A stretch of DNA of 47,790 nt, from positions 1 through 47,790 of the forward strand of contig JACOVF010000150.1 in NCBI GenBank assembly GCA_016177465.1, in the 5' to 3' direction. The notes under the pieces are model-generated. The model saw only the letters and a list, made by a program, of their open reading frames with translations. It made no database searches and had not been told where the DNA came from. This document shows, in pieces, positions 14,651 through 36,096 of this stretch (the stretch's first letter is position 1; each line of letters opens with the position of its first letter). The position numbers were made by a program, and so were the translations under genes. Origin of the DNA: Gemmatimonadota bacterium. Its GTDB lineage: Bacteria; Gemmatimonadota; Gemmatimonadetes; Gemmatimonadales; GWC2-71-9.

Positions 14651-14671
14651 GGTGAGCTAGGTGCCTTTGGA

Positions 14672-14703
14672 CCCCGGGCCGCCAGCCCGGGGTTAACCCA
14701 CCC
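14672..14703. repeat. REP-like palindrome (left)
   Basis: Stem CCCCGGGC (14672-14679), loop CGCCA, stem GCCCGGGG (14685-14692), followed by TTAACCCACCC. Confidence 0.8.
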
Positions 14704-14716
14704 GAATGGAGGTCGT

Positions 14717-15115
14717 GTGACTCGGGGAGCCCACAAGGCGTGCGGTCTGTACGCCCACATAACGTGGCACACGTGGCGGCGCGAGCCATCCATTCGGAAA
14801 GGAGACGTGGATGCCATCACGGCGGTCGTGCGCGAGGCGGCGACGTCCCGCGGCGTGCGCGTGCACGGCTTGGCGGTGTTGCACGACCACGTACACGTGC
14901 TAGTGAGTTACAACCCAGCGGCTGCGCTTACCCCGTTCATTCGGCATGCCAAGTCAGAATCCGCGAGACGCTTGAATCTGGGCAGGCATCCAGCGTTGCC
15001 GTTCAGGTGGTGCCGTGGGTACTACGCTGGGTCTCTATCCCGTTCACACGTTGACGCCGCGCGAAGGTACCTTGCACGGCAACGCATCCGACATCCGGAC
15101 CGCATCCCACAGTAG
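14717..15115 (+). CDS. REP-associated tyrosine transposase (RAYT), IS200/IS605 TnpA-like
   Basis: HUH motif HDHVHVLV and catalytic Tyr region WCRGYYAGS, in about 130 aa. GGAGG at 14708-14712 lies upstream of GTG 14717. Confidence 0.85.
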   Translation: MTRGAHKACGLYAHITWHTWRREPSIRKGDVDAITAVVREAATSRGVRVHGLAVLHDHVHVLVSYNPAAALTPFIRHAKSESARRLNLGRHPALPFRWCRGYYAGSLSRSHVDAARRYLARQRIRHPDRIPQ

Positions 15116-15131
15116 CCGCCGCACCTTTCGA

Positions 15132-15168
15132 GGGTGGGTTAACCCCGGGGCGGTGCCCCGGGGTTAAC
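15132..15168. repeat. REP-like palindrome (right)
   Basis: Perfect 13-bp stem GTTAACCCCGGGG (15138-15150), loop CGGTG, then CCCCGGGGTTAAC (15156-15168). Confidence 0.85.
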
Positions 15169-15190
15169 GGAGCACGGACTCCCTCCCGTG

Positions 15191-15217
15191 GTTACCGGGC
15201 GGTGCTACGGGGTTAAC
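15191..15217. repeat. degenerate third REP copy
   Basis: GTTACCGGG-CGGTG-CTACGGGGTTAAC has the same loop and outer arms as the 15138-15168 hairpin, but the stem has decayed. Confidence 0.55.
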
Positions 15218-19420: not shown

Positions 19421-19474
19421 TGTGAATCTCGGAGTATGTGGAAGTGCAGGCGAACGATGACGAGGAGCGGGAAG

Positions 19475-19523
19475 GGGCGGTAGTGGGCGGAGACCGTAAT
19501 GGGCGGTATCGGGTGGTAATGGT
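19475..19523. repeat. degenerate array of the 10-nt unit GGGCGGTA(A/G)T
   Basis: GGGCGGTAGTGGGCGGAGACCGTAATGGGCGGTATCGGGTGGTAATGG lies in the divergent intergenic region. Confidence 0.6.
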
Positions 19524-21699: not shown

Positions 21700-21957
21700 A
21701 TGGCTCATAAGAAAGGCGTCGGCTCCACCCGCAACGGCCGCGACTCGAATCCGCAATACCTGGGCGTGAAGTGCTTCGGGGGCGAGTTCGTGACGGCCGG
21801 GTCGATCATCGTGCGCCAGCGGGGCACTAAGTTCCATCCCGGCAAGAACGTGCGCCGCGCGTCGGACGACACGCTGTTCACCGTGGTGGACGGGGTCGTG
21901 AAGTTCGAGCACAAGGACAAGAAGCGGTATCAGGTGAGTGTGTATCCCGCAGCGTAG
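21700..21957 (+). CDS. rpmA: 50S ribosomal protein L27
   Basis: [24 protein letters not shown] is the canonical L27 N-terminus. Confidence 0.96.
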
Positions 21958-21975
21958 GCGGTAATGGGCGGTAGT
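21957..21975. repeat. short copy of the decamer repeat (GGCGGTAATGGGCGGTAGT)
   Basis: Begins at the last base of the rpmA stop codon and contains ATG 21964. Confidence 0.6.
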
Positions 21976-22662
21976 CCCATGACCGTCTTCCCCCAGGTGC
22001 CGTTCCATCCCATCCGTCACTCGCCGGAGGAGACGCTCCGCCGCGGCCGCGAGTTCTACGATCACATGAACCGCCGCCGCTCCGTTCGCTTCTTCTCCCC
22101 CGACCCGGTCCCTCGCGAGGCAATCGAGCTGGCCATCCAGATCGCCGGCACGGCGCCCTCCGGCGCGCACCAGCAGCCGTGGACGTTCGTCGTGGTGGAC
22201 GACCCGGAGCTGAAGCGTCAGATCCGGCTCGGCGCGGAGGAGGAGGAACGGGAGTTCTACGAGCACCGCGCCCCCGCCGAGTGGCTCGAGGCCCTGGCGC
22301 CCCTCGGCACCGACTGGCGTAAGCCGTTCCTCGAGATCGCGTCGTATCTGATCGTCGTGTTCCGGCACGCCTACCGGGTGGCGCCGGACGGCGCCCACCA
22401 CAAGACCTACTACAGCACCGAATCGGTCGGCATCGCTGTGGGACTGCTCATCGCCGCGTTGCACACGATGGGACTGTGCACTCTCACGCACACGCCGAGT
22501 CCGATGGAGTTCTTGAACGGCATCCTGGGGCGGCCGGAGTGGGAGAGGCCCTTCGTACTACTACCGGTTGGCTATGCTGCGCCGGACGCCACGGTGCCGG
22601 ACTTGAAACGCAAGGCGCTGGACGAGGTGGCGGTGTGGAACAAGGGCGGTAGTGGGCGGTAA
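21964..22662 (+). CDS. nitroreductase family protein (iodotyrosine-deiodinase-like subfamily)
   Basis: RRSVRFFSPDPVP, GTAPSGAHQQPWTFVVV and the layout are typical of the family. ATG 21964 lies inside the repeat, so ATG 21979 (MTVFPQVPF) is an equally good start. The last codons GGSGR-stop are encoded by the decamer array. Confidence 0.85.
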   Translation: MGGSPMTVFPQVPFHPIRHSPEETLRRGREFYDHMNRRRSVRFFSPDPVPREAIELAIQIAGTAPSGAHQQPWTFVVVDDPELKRQIRLGAEEEEREFYEHRAPAEWLEALAPLGTDWRKPFLEIASYLIVVFRHAYRVAPDGAHHKTYYSTESVGIAVGLLIAALHTMGLCTLTHTPSPMEFLNGILGRPEWERPFVLLPVGYAAPDATVPDLKRKALDEVAVWNKGGSGR

Positions 22663-22682
22663 TGGGCGGTAATGGGCGGTAA
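22644..22682. repeat. decamer array, forward arm (4 units GGGCGGTA[A/G]T)
   Basis: GGGCGGTAGTGGGCGGTAATGGGCGGTAATGGGCGGTAA. Inverted partner at 23126-23168. Confidence 0.85.
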
Positions 22683-22709
22683 AAAGTGTAGGGCCTGCGC
22701 TGTTTCGGT

Positions 22710-22715
22710 TATAGT
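22710..22715 (+). promoter_or_regulatory. -10-like box TATAGT, 9 nt upstream of GTG 22725
   Basis: TATAGT-aaccagccc-GTG with no SD and no convincing -35. Confidence 0.3.
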
Positions 22716-22724
22716 AACCAGCCC

Positions 22725-23108
22725 GTGCCTGCACACCTTCCATGCATGCTCCCCTATGAACGGTTTGCCTTCTGGAAGCCGTGCTACCAATTGGCGCTCG
22801 ATGTGTACAAGGCAACACAGAACTTCCCCAAGAGCGAGCTGTACGGCCTGACTTCGCAGGCCCGAAGAGCCGCGTTCTCGGTTGGGGCGAACATCGCGGA
22901 AGGGTCGGCGAAACGGGGGACGAGGGAGTTCAGGCGATTCCTCGATATCGGGATCGGTTCTCTTTCCGAGCTGTCGTTTACCCTCCAGCTATCCCGCGAC
23001 CTTGGCTTTCTGCCCAAGGAAACCTGGAAAGAGTTGGATGCACTGCGTAACCATGTTGGAGTCTTGATGTGGAAGCTCTGCCGAGCGCTGGACGGCGATG
23101 GGCGGTAG
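22725..23108 (+). CDS. four-helix-bundle protein (23S rRNA intervening-sequence protein family; Avd-like fold)
   Basis: YGLTSQARRAAFSVGANIAEGSAKRGTREFRRFLDIGIGSLSELSFTLQLSRDLGFL is the family signature. Visibly more A/T-rich than the flanking genes. Alternative start ATG 22746. Confidence 0.88.
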   Translation: MPAHLPCMLPYERFAFWKPCYQLALDVYKATQNFPKSELYGLTSQARRAAFSVGANIAEGSAKRGTREFRRFLDIGIGSLSELSFTLQLSRDLGFLPKETWKELDALRNHVGVLMWKLCRALDGDGR

Positions 23109-23125
23109 GGAGCCTGCGCATCCTG

Positions 23126-23168
23126 CCACCCATTACCGCCTACTACCGCCCATTACCGCCCATTACCG
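23126..23168. repeat. decamer array, inverted arm
   Basis: CCACCCATTACCGCCTACTACCGCCCATTACCGCCCATTACCG is the reverse complement of the forward units. 33 of 36 positions are complementary to 22647-22682 in the best register. Confidence 0.85.
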
Positions 23169-23170
23169 AC

Positions 23171-24379
23171 CTAGTACTTTGGCGGCAACGTCCGATAGCG
23201 ATCCAGCAGCTCCGTCTGCCGTGATCTCAACGGGATATCCCGCCCCCGAATAAGCACCCGCTCGACGGAAGTCCCGAATTCAAACGGATCCCCGCTCCAC
23301 ACCACCACGTTGGCGACCTTGCCCACCTCCAGCGAGCCGTAACGGTCCGCCACCCCGAACACTTCGGCGGGGGTGAGGGTCACCGCGCGCAGCGCCTGGT
23401 CCCATGTCATCCCATACGACACGGCGTTCCCCGCCTGTTGGCGCAGGTTGCGGGAGTTGTGGGAATCGGTCTCGAGCAGGACGACCTTGACTCCAGCCCG
23501 AGCAAGCGCGGCGGCGTTCTCGTACCGTACGCCGAGCGCGTCGTAGGACGGGATGTTGTCGAGCGGCTGCACCAGCACGGGCACTCCCGCGGCCGCGATT
23601 GCAGGGGCCACCATCCAGCCCTCCTGCGCGCCAGCGAGAATGAGCTTCAGCTTGTACTCTCGGGTGATCCGCACCGCTGTCTCGATGTCGCTGCGGCGGT
23701 TCGCCATCACCACCACCGGCAGCTCGCCACGCAGCACGGGCAGCAGGGCCTCGAGGTCGGCGCCCGGCGCCGCGAGCGCCTGCATCTGGGCGCGGGTATA
23801 ATCGGTCTTGCGGCGCGAGTACTCCAGAGCATCGTTGAGCACCCGGCGCAGCCTGGCCGCGACGCCCGCACGACTGCCGCCGCCCGCACCTTTGGCGCCC
23901 TCGGACAGGTTGATCACCATCGCAGCCGGCGACTTCACGAGCATCGCTTCGATGGTGGGTCCGTCCAGGTCGATGATCACCGCTTGCCCCAGAATCAGGC
24001 CGCCGGCAGGCGCGGCCAAGGCGGTCGTGATCCCCTCGACCCGTGTTACGGGGACGAGATTCGACGCGGGGTTGATGCCTTCCGCGACGTTGAACGACGC
24101 GGCGACGTCGTTGCCGTGGAAGGCGCCCTCGTTGGTGCTGGTGACGGCGCCGATCTCCGTGAGCCCCAGCTGGCCGCCGCCGTCGATCAGCCCCGGCGTG
24201 ACCCATTTGCCGCGGGCGTCGATGCGGGAGGCGTCGGACGGGATGGCAACGGTAGGGCCGACCGCGGCGATCTTGCCGTCGCGGATCAACACCGTGGCGT
24301 TCTCGATTTTCGGGCCGGAGACGGGGAACACCGTCCCGCCCGTGATGGCGATGGTCTGGGAGAGCAAGAACGCGATCAT
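23171..24379 (-). CDS. amidohydrolase-family protein with degenerate metal site
   Basis: Amidohydrolase-fold paralog of the upstream gene. The HxH position reads PGLIDGGGQLG instead of GLIDTHSHLG. 4-nt overlap with the upstream gene. Confidence 0.85.
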   Translation of the reverse strand: MIAFLLSQTIAITGGTVFPVSGPKIENATVLIRDGKIAAVGPTVAIPSDASRIDARGKWVTPGLIDGGGQLGLTEIGAVTSTNEGAFHGNDVAASFNVAEGINPASNLVPVTRVEGITTALAAPAGGLILGQAVIIDLDGPTIEAMLVKSPAAMVINLSEGAKGAGGGSRAGVAARLRRVLNDALEYSRRKTDYTRAQMQALAAPGADLEALLPVLRGELPVVVMANRRSDIETAVRITREYKLKLILAGAQEGWMVAPAIAAAGVPVLVQPLDNIPSYDALGVRYENAAALARAGVKVVLLETDSHNSRNLRQQAGNAVSYGMTWDQALRAVTLTPAEVFGVADRYGSLEVGKVANVVVWSGDPFEFGTSVERVLIRGRDIPLRSRQTELLDRYRTLPPKY

Positions 24380-33162: not shown

Positions 33163-36096
33163 ATGCGCCCAGTCACTCGAGTAGTCACGGTGGCCCTGAT
33201 CAGCATGTCGGCGTGTCTTGATCAGAGTAGTGCGCCGTCAACGAGCGGAGGGCTGTCGCTCAGGATCCTCGCCAGCCCCGGGACCATCGCTGCCCTGGAC
33301 TCGGGCCATGTCATCGTGGACGGGCCAACCAGGAAGACGGTGACGGTGACCCCGGGAACCACCGTGACGATCGATGGACTCGCGCCCGGATCGTACACCG
33401 TCGGGCTGCAGGGATTCCGGGGCGGGGGCGTCGCCTACTTCGGGCAGACGACCGGCGTGAACGTGGTCGCGGGCCAGAACACGCCTGCCACCATCACGTT
33501 CGCGTCATTCCAGCCGGTGATCCTCTCCATTCCCGCCTACACGACGGACGGACAGTTCGTCATGGTATTCTCAAAGGTGCAAAGCGCGGCAAGCTACGTC
33601 GTACAGAAGGATCCGGACGCGAGCTTCGGAACGCCGCAGGAAACCGCGATCGCGGCAACCGACACGAGCGTCCAGCTGTCCATCCCACTGACCGGTCCGC
33701 ATTACGTACGTGTGCTGGCCGTGGACCCCTATGGGGTGCGGGGACAGGCCAGCGCGGCGCAGTCCATCACCACGCTGACCACGGTCACGGTCAGCCCGGC
33801 GACGGGGAACATTGCCGCGGGAGCGACTCAGCAGTTCTCCGCGGTGGCCAAGGATGCGCAGAACAACACCATCACGGGCATCACCTTCTACTGGGCTTCC
33901 TCGAACCAGAACGTCGCGCTCGTGGACCAGACGGGGCTCGCCAGCGGAGTCTCGACTGGCACGGCGACGATAACGGCACTGGGTCTGGGCGTGCCGGGCA
34001 ACGCGGCCCTGACGGTGACGGGGCCGGCGGTGTGCACCACTCCGAGCAAGCTGGTATTCAGCGTCCAGCCCACGGACGCCACGACCGGGGCCGCGATCTC
34101 TCCGGCCGTCGCCGTGGCGGTCCAGGACGCAAGCGACAGGGCGTGCACCACGGCGCAGAATACGGTCACCCTTGCCATCGGCACGAACCCGGGCGGCGGC
34201 ACCCTGTCGGGAACGAGGACCGTCAATGCCGTGAACGGGGTCGCGAGCTTCAGCGGCCTGTCCATCGACAAAGCGGGCACGGGTTATACGCTGGCGGCGA
34301 GCTCGGGGGCCCTCACAGGCGCGACGAGCGCGGCGTTCAACATCCTAGCGGCTGCCGTGTGTACCACTCCGAGCAAGGTGGTATTCACCGTCCAGCCGAC
34401 GAGCGCCACCGCCGGTGCCGCGATCTCTCCCGCCGTCGAGGTCGAAGTCCGAGACGCAAGCGACAGGCTGTGCACGACGGCACGGAATACCCTCACCCTT
34501 GCCATCGGGACGAACCCGGGCAGCGGGAGCCTCTCCGGAACGGTGACTGTGAATGCCGTGAACGGGGTGGCGAGCTTCAGCGGCCTGTCCATCGACAAAG
34601 CCGGCGCCGGCTACACGCTGGCGGCGAGCGCGACCAGCCTCACAGGCGCGACCAGCTCGGCCTTCAACATCTCCCCCGGCCCGGCCGCGCGGCTGCAGTT
34701 CGCCGCACAGCCCCCGATCAGCATCGAGGGCAACTCCCCCTTCACCGTGCAGGTGCAGATCACCGACGCGTTCGCCAACGTCGTGACCGCGGCGACCAAC
34801 GCGGTGACGGTGGAGTTCGACCGCAGGGCGACATTCGGCGCTTTCGCCCGGTTGATCGGGACGGTCACGACGAGCGCCGTGGCCGGCGTGGCGCAGTTCG
34901 CGAACCTGCGGATCGACGTGCCGGGCAGCGGCTACGCGCTGCGGGCCCGTTCCGGCGCGCTCACGCCCGCTGGCACCAACGACTTCAACGTGATCCTGAC
35001 GTTCACCCAGGTCGACGCGGGCGATTTCCACACCTGCGGCGTCACGGTGAACAACTCTGCGTACTGCTGGGGCGCGAACTACAACGGTCAGCTGGGGATC
35101 GGCTCGTTCACATCGGACTCGGTGCCCCGGCTCGTGGCGGGTGGGCTCGCGTTGACGCAGGTCAGCGCCGGGGCCGCCCACACGTGTGGTGTCACGACGA
35201 GCAACGCCATCTACTGCTGGGGCTACAACGGCTATGGGCAGCTTGGCATCAACAGTACCGGTAGCGACCGCGCCGAACCGACGCAGGTGCAGCCGGCCGC
35301 GCCGCTGGTGTTCGCCCAGGTGGCCGCGGGCGGGTACCATACCTGCGCCACGACGACCTCCAGCGGGTCGCCTTCGGGCGCCTACTGCTGGGGGAGGGAT
35401 TTCGAGGGCGAGCTTGGGGACGGCACCGCAGGTACCGGAGACTCGGTCCCGAAGCTCGTCCCAGGCGGCTTCAACTGGAAGCAAATCAGTGGGGGCTTCT
35501 TGCATACCTGCGCTATACACAGCAACGACACGGCCTACTGCTGGGGTTACAACGTTTATGGCCAGGTCGGTATCAACAGCAACGTGTCGCCCCAGCCGAC
35601 TCCCCAGCAGGTATCCGCGTCGCTCGCCTTCGCACGGGTCTCGACTGGCTACTACCATTCGTGCGCCGGCCAGCCGGCGGCCGGCACCAACAAGATCTGG
35701 TGCTGGGGGAGGAACAGCGAGGGCCAGATCGGGAACGGCGCCGCGCTCCCTGGGGCCGCGGTCCTGGATGAAGTGGAAATCGCGAGCCAGCTGACGTGGG
35801 TGAGTCTCGGGGTCGGCGGCTTGCACACCTGCATGATTGACGGCACGTCGGCGTACTGCGTCGGCTATGCCAACTACGGCCAGCTTGGAAACGGGACGAC
35901 CAGTCCCAACATCAGTACGCGGGAGCAAGTCCTGGGGTCGCATCCGTTCACGGTGGTGGCGCCCGGCACGTACCATACCTGCGCGCTCAACGCCGGCAAC
36001 GGGCAGGTATGGTGCTGGGGATACGGCGGGGACGGGGAGCTTGGCAACGGCGCCCGTCCCTTCCAACAGACGCAGCCGGTGCAGGTCATCCAATAG
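33163..36096 (+). CDS. lipoprotein with Big_2 Ig-like domain, three 109-aa repeats and a 7-bladed RCC1-like beta-propeller
   Basis: Lipobox-like SMSAC. Big_2 block VTVSPATGNIAAGATQQFSAVAKD. Seven [YW]C[WV]G-x4-G[QE][LIV]G motifs (AYCWGANYNGQLG ... VWCWGYGGDGELG). Confidence 0.88.
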   Translation: MRPVTRVVTVALISMSACLDQSSAPSTSGGLSLRILASPGTIAALDSGHVIVDGPTRKTVTVTPGTTVTIDGLAPGSYTVGLQGFRGGGVAYFGQTTGVNVVAGQNTPATITFASFQPVILSIPAYTTDGQFVMVFSKVQSAASYVVQKDPDASFGTPQETAIAATDTSVQLSIPLTGPHYVRVLAVDPYGVRGQASAAQSITTLTTVTVSPATGNIAAGATQQFSAVAKDAQNNTITGITFYWASSNQNVALVDQTGLASGVSTGTATITALGLGVPGNAALTVTGPAVCTTPSKLVFSVQPTDATTGAAISPAVAVAVQDASDRACTTAQNTVTLAIGTNPGGGTLSGTRTVNAVNGVASFSGLSIDKAGTGYTLAASSGALTGATSAAFNILAAAVCTTPSKVVFTVQPTSATAGAAISPAVEVEVRDASDRLCTTARNTLTLAIGTNPGSGSLSGTVTVNAVNGVASFSGLSIDKAGAGYTLAASATSLTGATSSAFNISPGPAARLQFAAQPPISIEGNSPFTVQVQITDAFANVVTAATNAVTVEFDRRATFGAFARLIGTVTTSAVAGVAQFANLRIDVPGSGYALRARSGALTPAGTNDFNVILTFTQVDAGDFHTCGVTVNNSAYCWGANYNGQLGIGSFTSDSVPRLVAGGLALTQVSAGAAHTCGVTTSNAIYCWGYNGYGQLGINSTGSDRAEPTQVQPAAPLVFAQVAAGGYHTCATTTSSGSPSGAYCWGRDFEGELGDGTAGTGDSVPKLVPGGFNWKQISGGFLHTCAIHSNDTAYCWGYNVYGQVGINSNVSPQPTPQQVSASLAFARVSTGYYHSCAGQPAAGTNKIWCWGRNSEGQIGNGAALPGAAVLDEVEIASQLTWVSLGVGGLHTCMIDGTSAYCVGYANYGQLGNGTTSPNISTREQVLGSHPFTVVAPGTYHTCALNAGNGQVWCWGYGGDGELGNGARPFQQTQPVQVIQ
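34027..34680 (+). repeat. two tandem 327-nt (109-aa) coding repeats, followed by a third divergent unit to about 35007
   Basis: The units AVCTTPSKLVFSVQPTDATTGAAISPAV... and AVCTTPSKVVFTVQPTSATAGAAISPAV... start at 34027 and 34354. Most positions are identical. Confidence 0.85.

Follow-up and report, generated by a model that had tools for sequence, protein, structure and literature searches.

A PF05635 four-helix-bundle gene between inverted short-tandem-repeat arrays in Gemmatimonadota: a probable free-standing cassette of the rRNA intervening-sequence type

How does a small gene come to stand in the loop of a long palindrome, and what is the palindrome to the gene? The question is raised by contig JACOVF010000150.1 of a Gemmatimonadota bacterium (47,790 nt, analysed as a whole and called the window here), in which a gene of the PF05635 four-helix-bundle family lies between two facing arrays of a decamer, with a nitroreductase gene on its left and a convergent amidohydrolase gene on its right. 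An earlier note, made from the sequence alone, had compared the locus with the intervening sequences (IVSs) of 23S rRNA and had offered as one option a unit defined by the arrays. With moderate confidence, we favour the reading that this is a free-standing, non-rRNA cassette of the IVS type, whose arrays bound an exchangeable DNA unit and would form a stem of the RNase III type in read-through RNA.

The inverted decamer arms described in the earlier note are present in the window. An inverted-repeat search paired 43 nt (22640-22682 with 23133-23175) at 88 % complementarity and 450 nt apart, and alternative registers reach up to 96 % over 28 nt. Tandem Repeats Finder (TRF) resolved the left array (22644-22682) as 3.9 copies of a 10-nt period with 96 % matches and the right array (23129-23168) as 4.0 copies with 86 %. 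An 18-mer spanning two units matches the window 13 times at three mismatches or fewer, against 0.03 matches expected. The interval between the arms measures 443 nt, close to the 440 nt noted before, and holds a single PF05635 open reading frame (ORF; 22725-23108). Its longest version begins at GTG 22725, but alignment with relatives makes ATG 22746 (MLPYERF...) the likely start, so that the product shrinks from the 127 amino acids first given to 120. The stop codons of both the nitroreductase and the cassette gene had been credited to the arms. This is true of the nitroreductase, whose tail (GGSGR-stop) is encoded by the left array, whereas the GDGR-stop of the cassette gene comes from two degenerate forward units inside the loop, which can pair locally with the right arm (a weak local fold, z = -1.9). 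The right arm does not end 2 nt from the amidohydrolase stop, as had been thought; by unit matching, its last unit reaches 23171 and overlaps that stop codon. The coordinates are collected in Table 1.

The family assignment of the enclosed protein is clear. It matches Pfam PF05635 (E = 1.7e-29, 102.6 bits against a cut-off of 33.8) and TIGR02436 (E = 6e-29, 100.4 bits against 24), and its nearest solved structure by sequence similarity is XCC0516 (PDB 2GSC, E = 1.8e-21). The conserved motif of the family has been given as GxxRxxxSxxxNxxE (PMC3936711); the window protein reads ...SQARRAAFSVGANIAEG..., matching the R-x3-S-x3-N-x2-E part. PF05635 is the family to which Avd is related (PMC10053308). 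Avd is a pentameric, basic protein that binds nucleic acids. The defence-system models of PADLOC gave no match.

We asked whether relatives of the gene carry such arms, using loci fetched by the protein alone and thus blind to arrays (80 soil-metagenome loci, proteins 53-71 % identical). The 250 nt upstream of each gene were compared with its 3' flank for local inverted complementarity. Inverted arms stood far above controls in 79 of the 82 loci with enough flank, with a median local score of 24.5 against 8.2 for the same flanks in direct orientation. The threshold score of at least 14 was reached by 96 % of the genes and by 12 of 1333 pseudo-genes (0.9 %) set at other positions of these loci. 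Between the left array and the ATG lie 50-100 nt, and between the stop and the right array 0-25 nt. The unit varies by locus, with lengths of 7-28 nt and more than 12 types (GGCGGTA, GGCGGCA, GACGGTAAGG, GGAATGAT, GACGGAAC, GACGGGAAC, GGGCGGAT, GGACGGGC, ACGGACAGG and 20-28-nt GGCGGCGGTC... units among them), and each locus, without exception, has a right arm that is the reverse complement of its left arm. There are 74 distinct arm pairs, in at least about 20 genomic contexts, a rough count in which singletons are inflated by short contigs. Inverted tandem-repeat arms are thus shown to be a near-universal companion of this gene family. No paper found in the openly searchable literature generalises the arrays or ties tandem arrays of the short tandemly repeated repetitive (STRR) kind to PF05635 genes, and the rule that these genes sit within locus-specific inverted short-tandem-repeat arrays appears to be unreported there.

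Two other accounts of the arrays were set aside. As the same build recurs in finished plasmids from cultured strains and in numerous independent assemblies, an assembly artefact is rejected. Binding sites held in helical phase fail on the period of the unit, which is not fixed at 10 bp (7, 8, 9, 10, 20 and 28 nt).

The history of the site can be read from its relatives. About 30 loci are syntenic with the window, in the order rplU, rpmA, left array, cassette, right array and convergent amidohydrolase, and no nitroreductase homolog was found at this position in them. There, rpmA leads directly to the left array and cassette, or to another inserted gene bracketed by forward arrays. The nitroreductase/amidohydrolase junction, which the earlier note had proposed to compare in related genomes, is secondary: the ancestral junction is rpmA/amidohydrolase, and the nitroreductase gene was inserted later at the array border. 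Because extra genes in several lineages are bracketed by forward arrays on both sides, the two decamers across the rpmA stop are explained as well, and we read them as the outer remnant of a left array split by the nitroreductase insertion. Other inserts between rpmA and the cassette encode a CarboxypepD_reg/Plug protein (L083 and L091-L098, where L numbers denote comparison loci), and a DUF4019-like protein of 148 aa (L104). They lie at 5153-5923 in L083, 2044-2877 in L091 and 883-1329 in L104, and an uncharacterised stretch occupies about 2000-2625 in L147. The genes inserted exactly at array borders are unrelated to one another, and such borders seem to be hot spots of insertion.

An empty site was found when we sampled the junction blind through nine amidohydrolase orthologs. 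Three junctions are bare (L187/188, L193/194 and L195/196), the neighbouring genes being separated by anything from a 4-nt overlap to a 17-nt gap with no arrays. Three others hold an ORF-less array hairpin of about 100 nt (L186, L191 and L192), with a different unit in each and a similar loop stretch in two. Two closely related lineages (L180-L185, unit GACGGACAGA) carry the cassette in the opposite orientation, and one sampled contig ends 2 nt after the amidohydrolase stop. The independent metagenome contigs L189 and L190 (contig end at 3711) stop in this way, 2 nt past the amidohydrolase stop, at the point where arrays are expected to start; short-read assemblies are probably broken by the arrays.

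The clearest sign that the arrays delimit a unit comes from two close relatives, L133 and L134. Their rpmA and amidohydrolase genes are 93-100 % identical in DNA up to the stops (dS, the synonymous divergence, 0.19 and 0.14), whereas the arrays, leader and ORF between them are only 50-60 % identical and the units differ (AGGGCGGCA and GTAGGGCG). Synonymous sites of the ORF are saturated (proportion of synonymous differences, pS, 0.79; of nonsynonymous differences, pN, 0.26). Given the identity of the flanks and the saturated interior, the array-bounded segment must have a much older history than its surroundings, and the ratio of the two proportions indicates that the four-helix-bundle protein is under purifying selection. 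Identity stops at the outer array edges and the interior is replaced, as expected of the unit defined by the arrays that the earlier note had proposed. Over the syntenic set, the identity of the four-helix-bundle protein shows no significant correlation with that of the amidohydrolase (Spearman 0.12, p = 0.096). Unit copy number also shifts among close relatives, L143 and L141 having four and five copies of the same unit in their arms. The comparison of these sequences shows that arms, leader and gene travel together, and that the unit may be absent, ORF-less, in either orientation or swapped for a deeply divergent version.

Is this build confined to Gemmatimonadota? A protein search for distant relatives gave only close Gemmatimonadota sequences, and the wider diversity was sampled by tblastn of plasmids, which recovered copies in cultured cyanobacteria and in Azospirillum. 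Of the 11 cyanobacterial plasmid copies, ten lie between two arrays, which in nine are plainly inverted heptamers or octamers, with units that include AGGGTGT, AGGAGATA, AGGAGTC, AGTAGGG, AAAAGGG and TGACAGG. The Pseudanabaena copy is enclosed by large arrays in direct orientation, with an inverted one further upstream, and that of Nostoc PCC 7120 has a downstream array only. These are tandem heptamers that resemble those of the STRR kind (AGGGTGT, AGGAGTC, AGTAGGG, TGACAGG and others). Cyanobacterial STRR heptamers were reportedly described by Mazel and colleagues in 1990. STRRs have been described as dispersed repeats without assigned function. Several of the cyanobacterial copies with inverted arrays stand between co-directional genes of one operon, such as cmr2 and cmr3 or cas6 and cas4. 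Several PF05635 copies within cas operons had been noted earlier, with no mention of repeats (PMC3936711). Some of the arrays beside four-helix-bundle genes between cas6 and cas4 are very large: AAAAGCT x15 and AAAAGCC x14 in L168 (Pseudanabaena galeata plasmid pPg_01, 1260-1970), and TGACAGGGAACAGG x20 over 273 nt in L179 (Anabaena sp. 90 pANA02).

The Azospirillum copy (L170) lies inside a 23S rRNA gene, as judged by its Rfam LSU (large-subunit rRNA) match, between inverted GAGGACG-type arrays. By its sequence it is a classical IVS of the same build as the window cassette. The IVS of Coxiella has a 28-bp terminal stem cleaved by RNase III and two or three tandem GACAGAT heptamers at its 5' end, in strain-variable copy number (PMC4990558). 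The analogy with IVSs drawn in the earlier note is therefore borne out, since both examples are PF05635 ORFs between inverted short tandem repeats. With IVSs that carry an S23p/PF05635 ORF (Coxiella, Leptospira and Xanthomonas-type), the window cassette shares the protein family, placed in the loop of a long stem of terminal inverted repeats, arms that contain short tandem repeats, and ORF-less short versions beside ORF-bearing ones. The inserts are also of similar size, 428-444 nt in Coxiella against about 440 nt in the window. Its termini are complementary over 43-nt arms, which form a long stem in both the minimum-free-energy (MFE) and the centroid fold. Unlike the IVSs, the element stands between protein-coding genes and thus lacks the rRNA location that defines them (no rRNA or other Rfam family was found in the window), it has a promoter-like motif in its loop, and its arms are decamer arrays that are also dispersed in the genome.

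These distributions bear on an alternative in which the gene would be a coincidental neighbour of repeats that belong to the 3' ends or terminators of convergent genes, their inverted symmetry following from convergent transcription. Forward arrays do follow the stops of rpmA and of inserted genes, often joined to a hairpin plus T-run, the G-rich arm lies 5' on both strands in all Gemmatimonadota pairs seen but L023, arm mismatches show no G·U bias, and ORF-less pairs occur between other genes. Such repeats, however, would not bracket 96 % of the four-helix-bundle genes and 0.9 % of controls, nor be missing from the bare rpmA/amidohydrolase junctions, nor change along with the gene in swaps; convergent transcription does not account for the inverted arrays between co-directional cyanobacterial operon genes or for the same build within 23S rRNA. 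The association statistics already contradict coincidence, which we regard as very improbable.

The loop itself is distinctive. Its GC content is 0.585, against 0.678 for the window, and that of third codon positions is 0.74 in the ORF, against 0.85-0.88 in its neighbours; no other 400-nt stretch of the 47.8 kb is as poor in GC as the cassette interior. The A/T-rich ORF and its TATAGT box were thus rightly noted before, and the low GC of the window copy fits a foreign origin. A de novo expectation-maximisation (EM) search of 66 non-redundant leaders returned a family consensus, nnaTTGGTTA, position-locked at -44 +/- 2 from the ATG (log-likelihood 117, against 24-27 in shuffles) and present at -46 to -42 in 31 of the 66. 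It is directly followed by a TAnnnT-like hexamer and is retained in cassettes of both orientations. A sigma-70 consensus scan called no promoter; conservation and position suggest that the motif may be one. In many relatives a hairpin plus T-run comes right after the left array, which suggests that transcripts from upstream would mostly end before the gene.

Just inside the arms, the direct repeat reported in the earlier note is present as described, its first copy (GTAGGGCCTGCGC) at 22688-22700, but it is not general in relatives and the target duplication suggested for it did not hold up. It lies inside the arms and is restricted to the window and L159-type loci, where a forward unit and the beginning of a local hairpin make it up, and it is rejected as a general target-site duplication. 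This matters for a reading as a non-autonomous transposon, a miniature inverted-repeat transposable element (MITE)-like unit with cargo whose arms would serve as terminal inverted repeats, with multiple sites for a transposase that is encoded at another locus. Terminal inverted repeats made of repeated units, presence or absence and both orientations at one site, short ORF-less derivatives, and an array pair that encloses another gene (RidA in L055) would all suit such an element. The general absence of a target-site duplication sets the cassette apart from transposons and MITEs, and its arm length and unit differ by copy, unlike a family recognised by one transposase. No linked transposase was present in any of about 100 loci, and the cassette is found time and again at one junction instead of being spread over many sites. 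We judge this origin improbable. The cassette also differs from integron cassettes, as tandem arrays flank the gene on both sides and no integrase was found among the genes called in the syntenic loci.

The kinship with Avd raises the further idea of a decayed diversity-generating retroelement (DGR), of which the Avd gene would have been left behind once the reverse transcriptase was lost. The two are related in four-helix-bundle fold and family (PMC10053308). Avd genes are not known to stand between inverted arrays. No reverse-transcriptase domain occurs in the immediate window neighbours (nitroreductase and amidohydrolase) and no reverse transcriptase among the genes called within 4 kb on either side in the syntenic loci; no long repeat of the template/variable type lies within about 250 nt of the ORF, and the cassette protein has no match in the phage collection. 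The cassette build is, moreover, conserved on its own in about 100 loci, and we give this idea next to no credence.

A more serious alternative arises from the decamer itself, which is not private to the cassette and has further copies, missed in the earlier note, at two sites in the window (Table 1) and across Gemmatimonadales. A scan for GGGCGGTARTGGGCGGTA with one genome per species gave 87 loci, about half of them in metagenome-assembled genomes (MAGs) of Gemmatimonadales/Gemmatimonadota, with many contigs per MAG. Matches in Prevotella, Bacteroides, Streptomyces and others had no PF05635 ORF in a hidden Markov model (HMM) search, resemble chance two-unit matches and were discarded. Arrays in the Gemmatimonadales MAGs are mostly convergent pairs (forward then reverse) with loops of 5-120 nt, that is, long hairpins with no gene. 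ORF-less pairs are far more numerous than ORF-containing ones; among the latter, one encloses a RidA-like gene (L055) and two enclose homologs of the four-helix-bundle gene (L070 and L083). Several unit families occur side by side within one genome. In 85 kb of the MAG SMAG_U4459 there are 29 arrays of the GRCGGTA type and 16 built from other units, a second recurring pair family among them, and its four-helix-bundle gene (L070) is flanked by 12 + 3 + 5 GRCGGTA-type units.

Such a pattern recalls the repetitive extragenic palindromic (REP) sequences and their REP-associated tyrosine transposases (RAYTs), the REPtrons and REPINs (REP doublets forming hairpins) that Nunvar in 2010, Bertels and Rainey in 2011 and Ton-Hoang in 2012 are said to have described. 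Here the four-helix-bundle protein would recognise the repeat unit as the trans-acting factor for the dispersed array hairpins, with its own gene in one copy, like a RAYT gene between its cognate REP sequences, and the ORF-less hairpins would be the population that is maintained or spread. Both systems place a small gene between inverted copies of a genome-dispersed repeat that occurs mostly as gene-less palindromic doublets at gene ends and is lineage-specific in sequence. The additional decamer sites in the window, the many SMAG_U4459 arrays of the unit that flanks its gene, the excess of ORF-less pairs and the multiple unit families in one genome point the same way, and protein clusters track the unit type across two genomic contexts (the 20-28-nt GGCGGCGGTC unit). 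A classical RAYT between REP hairpins in the window shows that the architecture exists in the same genome. The enclosed protein, however, is a 120-aa helical bundle of PF05635, with no nuclease or HUH-type motif, where a REPtron has a Y1 HUH transposase; each arm repeats a 7-28-nt unit in tandem instead of being a single imperfect palindrome; and cassettes are swapped horizontally, RAYTs being typically vertical. Orthologous ORF-less hairpins with different units and a common loop sequence also speak for evolution in place and not for dispersal. A system of this kind is in our view unlikely, though less so than a transposon. Equally doubtful is a broader conjecture, in which a single system spanning phyla would unite PF05635 proteins with inverted short-tandem-repeat hairpins: the pentamer would recognise the units of its own arms and of the ORF-less arrays dispersed in the same genome (STRRs and rRNA IVS stems included) and drive their maintenance, homogenisation or spread. 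If true, it would be a host-element partnership like that of REPINs and RAYTs, resting on a non-enzymatic nucleic-acid-binding protein.

Several observations on the dispersed repeats stand by themselves. The REPtron of the window (14671-15164) has a 132-aa Y1_Tnp gene (IS200-like, RAYT-type; 14717-15115, Pfam E = 5e-19) between 33-nt inverted repeats with CCCCGGG...CCCGGGG hairpins and GGGGTTAAC, and further GGGGTTAAC copies lie at 15160-15215. Several ORF-less hairpins from different MAGs (L017 at about 1470-1540, L024 at about 2300-2380, L033 and L056) have a further conserved palindrome nested in their loop, GTCATCCCGAGC...GGGATCTTCTTAAGGCTGAGAAGATCCC...GCTCGGGATGAC. An ORF-less pair stands about 2.1-2.2 kb upstream of the four-helix-bundle gene at an orthologous position in L106, L108, L139, L144 and L160, with units GGCGGTTG, GACGGCCG and GACGGTAG, so that gene-less hairpins also change their unit in place. 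The 5' arm is a G/purine-rich array on both strands in nearly all Gemmatimonadota pairs (forward then reverse); the polarity is reversed in L023 (4350-4860, decayed, with an internal deletion) and in the Calothrix copy L174. Elsewhere, too, arrays lend C-terminal codons and stops to genes, as in the GGRTGR-stop of a histidine-kinase-like gene (L015, 1274-1318) and the extended rpmA call of L180-L185. With a 10-nt period, the TAA/TAG of the unit shuts all three reading frames within three units.

How might a free-standing cassette of the IVS type work? We picture it as a left array, a short leader with a promoter-like motif, the PF05635 gene and a reverse-complement right array, in the hairpin position where two convergent genes (at first rpmA and the amidohydrolase) meet with their 3' ends. 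As DNA, the exchanged unit would be bounded by its arrays in the manner of terminal inverted repeats, and the arms may stay alike by slippage and copying between hairpin arms, or by gene conversion. Such a DNA-level role is suggested by the symmetry of the pattern, by arms that change in concert and by swaps whose breakpoints lie at the arrays. In read-through RNA, pairing of the arms would give a duplex of about 40 bp, such as RNase III cuts in rRNA IVSs. Asked for in the earlier note, a fold of 22630-23185 joined the two arms in a long stem, in the MFE structure as well as in the centroid (-250 kcal/mol, z = -4.9). By analogy, cleavage of the stem would cut the cassette out of its host transcript, and insertions in rRNA, in operons and at gene ends would then do no harm. 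The RNA stem would thus be a by-product that makes read-through insertions tolerable. The protein, Avd-like and presumably pentameric, could act on the repeat structures or on the cassette RNA.

A number of results weigh against this picture. Selection on the sense RNA stem alone finds no support in the strand test: arm mismatches show no G·U excess (G·U 105, A·C 104) and the sense and antisense arm duplex energies are equal, so that there is no signal of selection on a sense stem. The leader motif and the terminators past the left array suggest that the gene's own mRNA probably starts inside the loop and lacks the left arm. Only transcripts that read through both arms could then form the long RNA stem, and a purely RNA-stem reading is incomplete. 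The ORF-less hairpin L192 has a terminator in its loop. No recombinase, transposase or reverse transcriptase adjoins the cassette, by Pfam analysis of the neighbours and in the syntenic loci, and the swaps could come from homologous recombination through the conserved flanks, though the breakpoints fall within about 15 nt of the arrays. Finally, the comparison loci are mostly metagenome contigs.

Table 1 Positions of the cassette, its repeats and its neighbours in the window
Feature	Position	Strand	Basis
Solo degenerate array of about five decamer units, in the divergent intergenic region upstream of an RNase G/E-like gene	19465..19520	+	Unit matches
Two forward decamers across the rpmA stop and nitroreductase start	21956..21975	+	Unit matches
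Nitroreductase gene, array-bracketed insertion specific to the window lineage	21964..22662	+	Pfam PF00881, synteny
Left arm, four forward decamers GGGCGGTA[AG]T	22644..22683	+	TRF, unit matches, inverted-repeat search
Small terminator-like hairpin just inside the left arm, including the first direct-repeat copy	22685..22701	+	Consensus scan
Leader motif GTTTCGGTTA running into TATAGT (22710-22715), promoter-like, -10 type	22702..22715	+	De novo EM motif, k-mer counts
Four-helix-bundle gene (PF05635 / TIGR02436), 120 aa	22746..23108	+	Profile matches, alignment with relatives
Two degenerate forward units GGACGGCGAT GGGCGGTAG, last codons and stop of the cassette ORF	23090..23108	+	Direct-repeat family D1, inverted pair I6
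Second direct-repeat copy GTAGGGAGCCTGCGC	23105..23119	+	Sequence
Right arm, four to five decamers	23126..23171	-	TRF 23129-23168, unit matches to 23171
Convergent amidohydrolase, conserved right-hand neighbour	23171..24379	-	Pfam, synteny

Apart from these features, the window holds a 327-nt tandem duplication at 34030-34671, with two copies 84 % identical, within a 977-aa ORF (33163-36096); it is presumably a repeated protein domain.

The findings have consequences for annotation, as the arrays end metagenome contigs and extend or terminate neighbouring ORFs. Bare site, ORF-less hairpin, cassette in either orientation and cassettes swapped between identical flanks form a series that makes the spread of the gene testable, and cultured carriers with complete plasmids are at hand in Nostoc, Calothrix, Picosynechococcus and Azospirillum. 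From a wider perspective, three loose ends may possibly be one phenomenon: the role and spread of the genes annotated as "23S rRNA IVS / S23p / four helix bundle", the nature of the rRNA IVSs themselves, and the short tandem arrays of cyanobacteria and other phyla.

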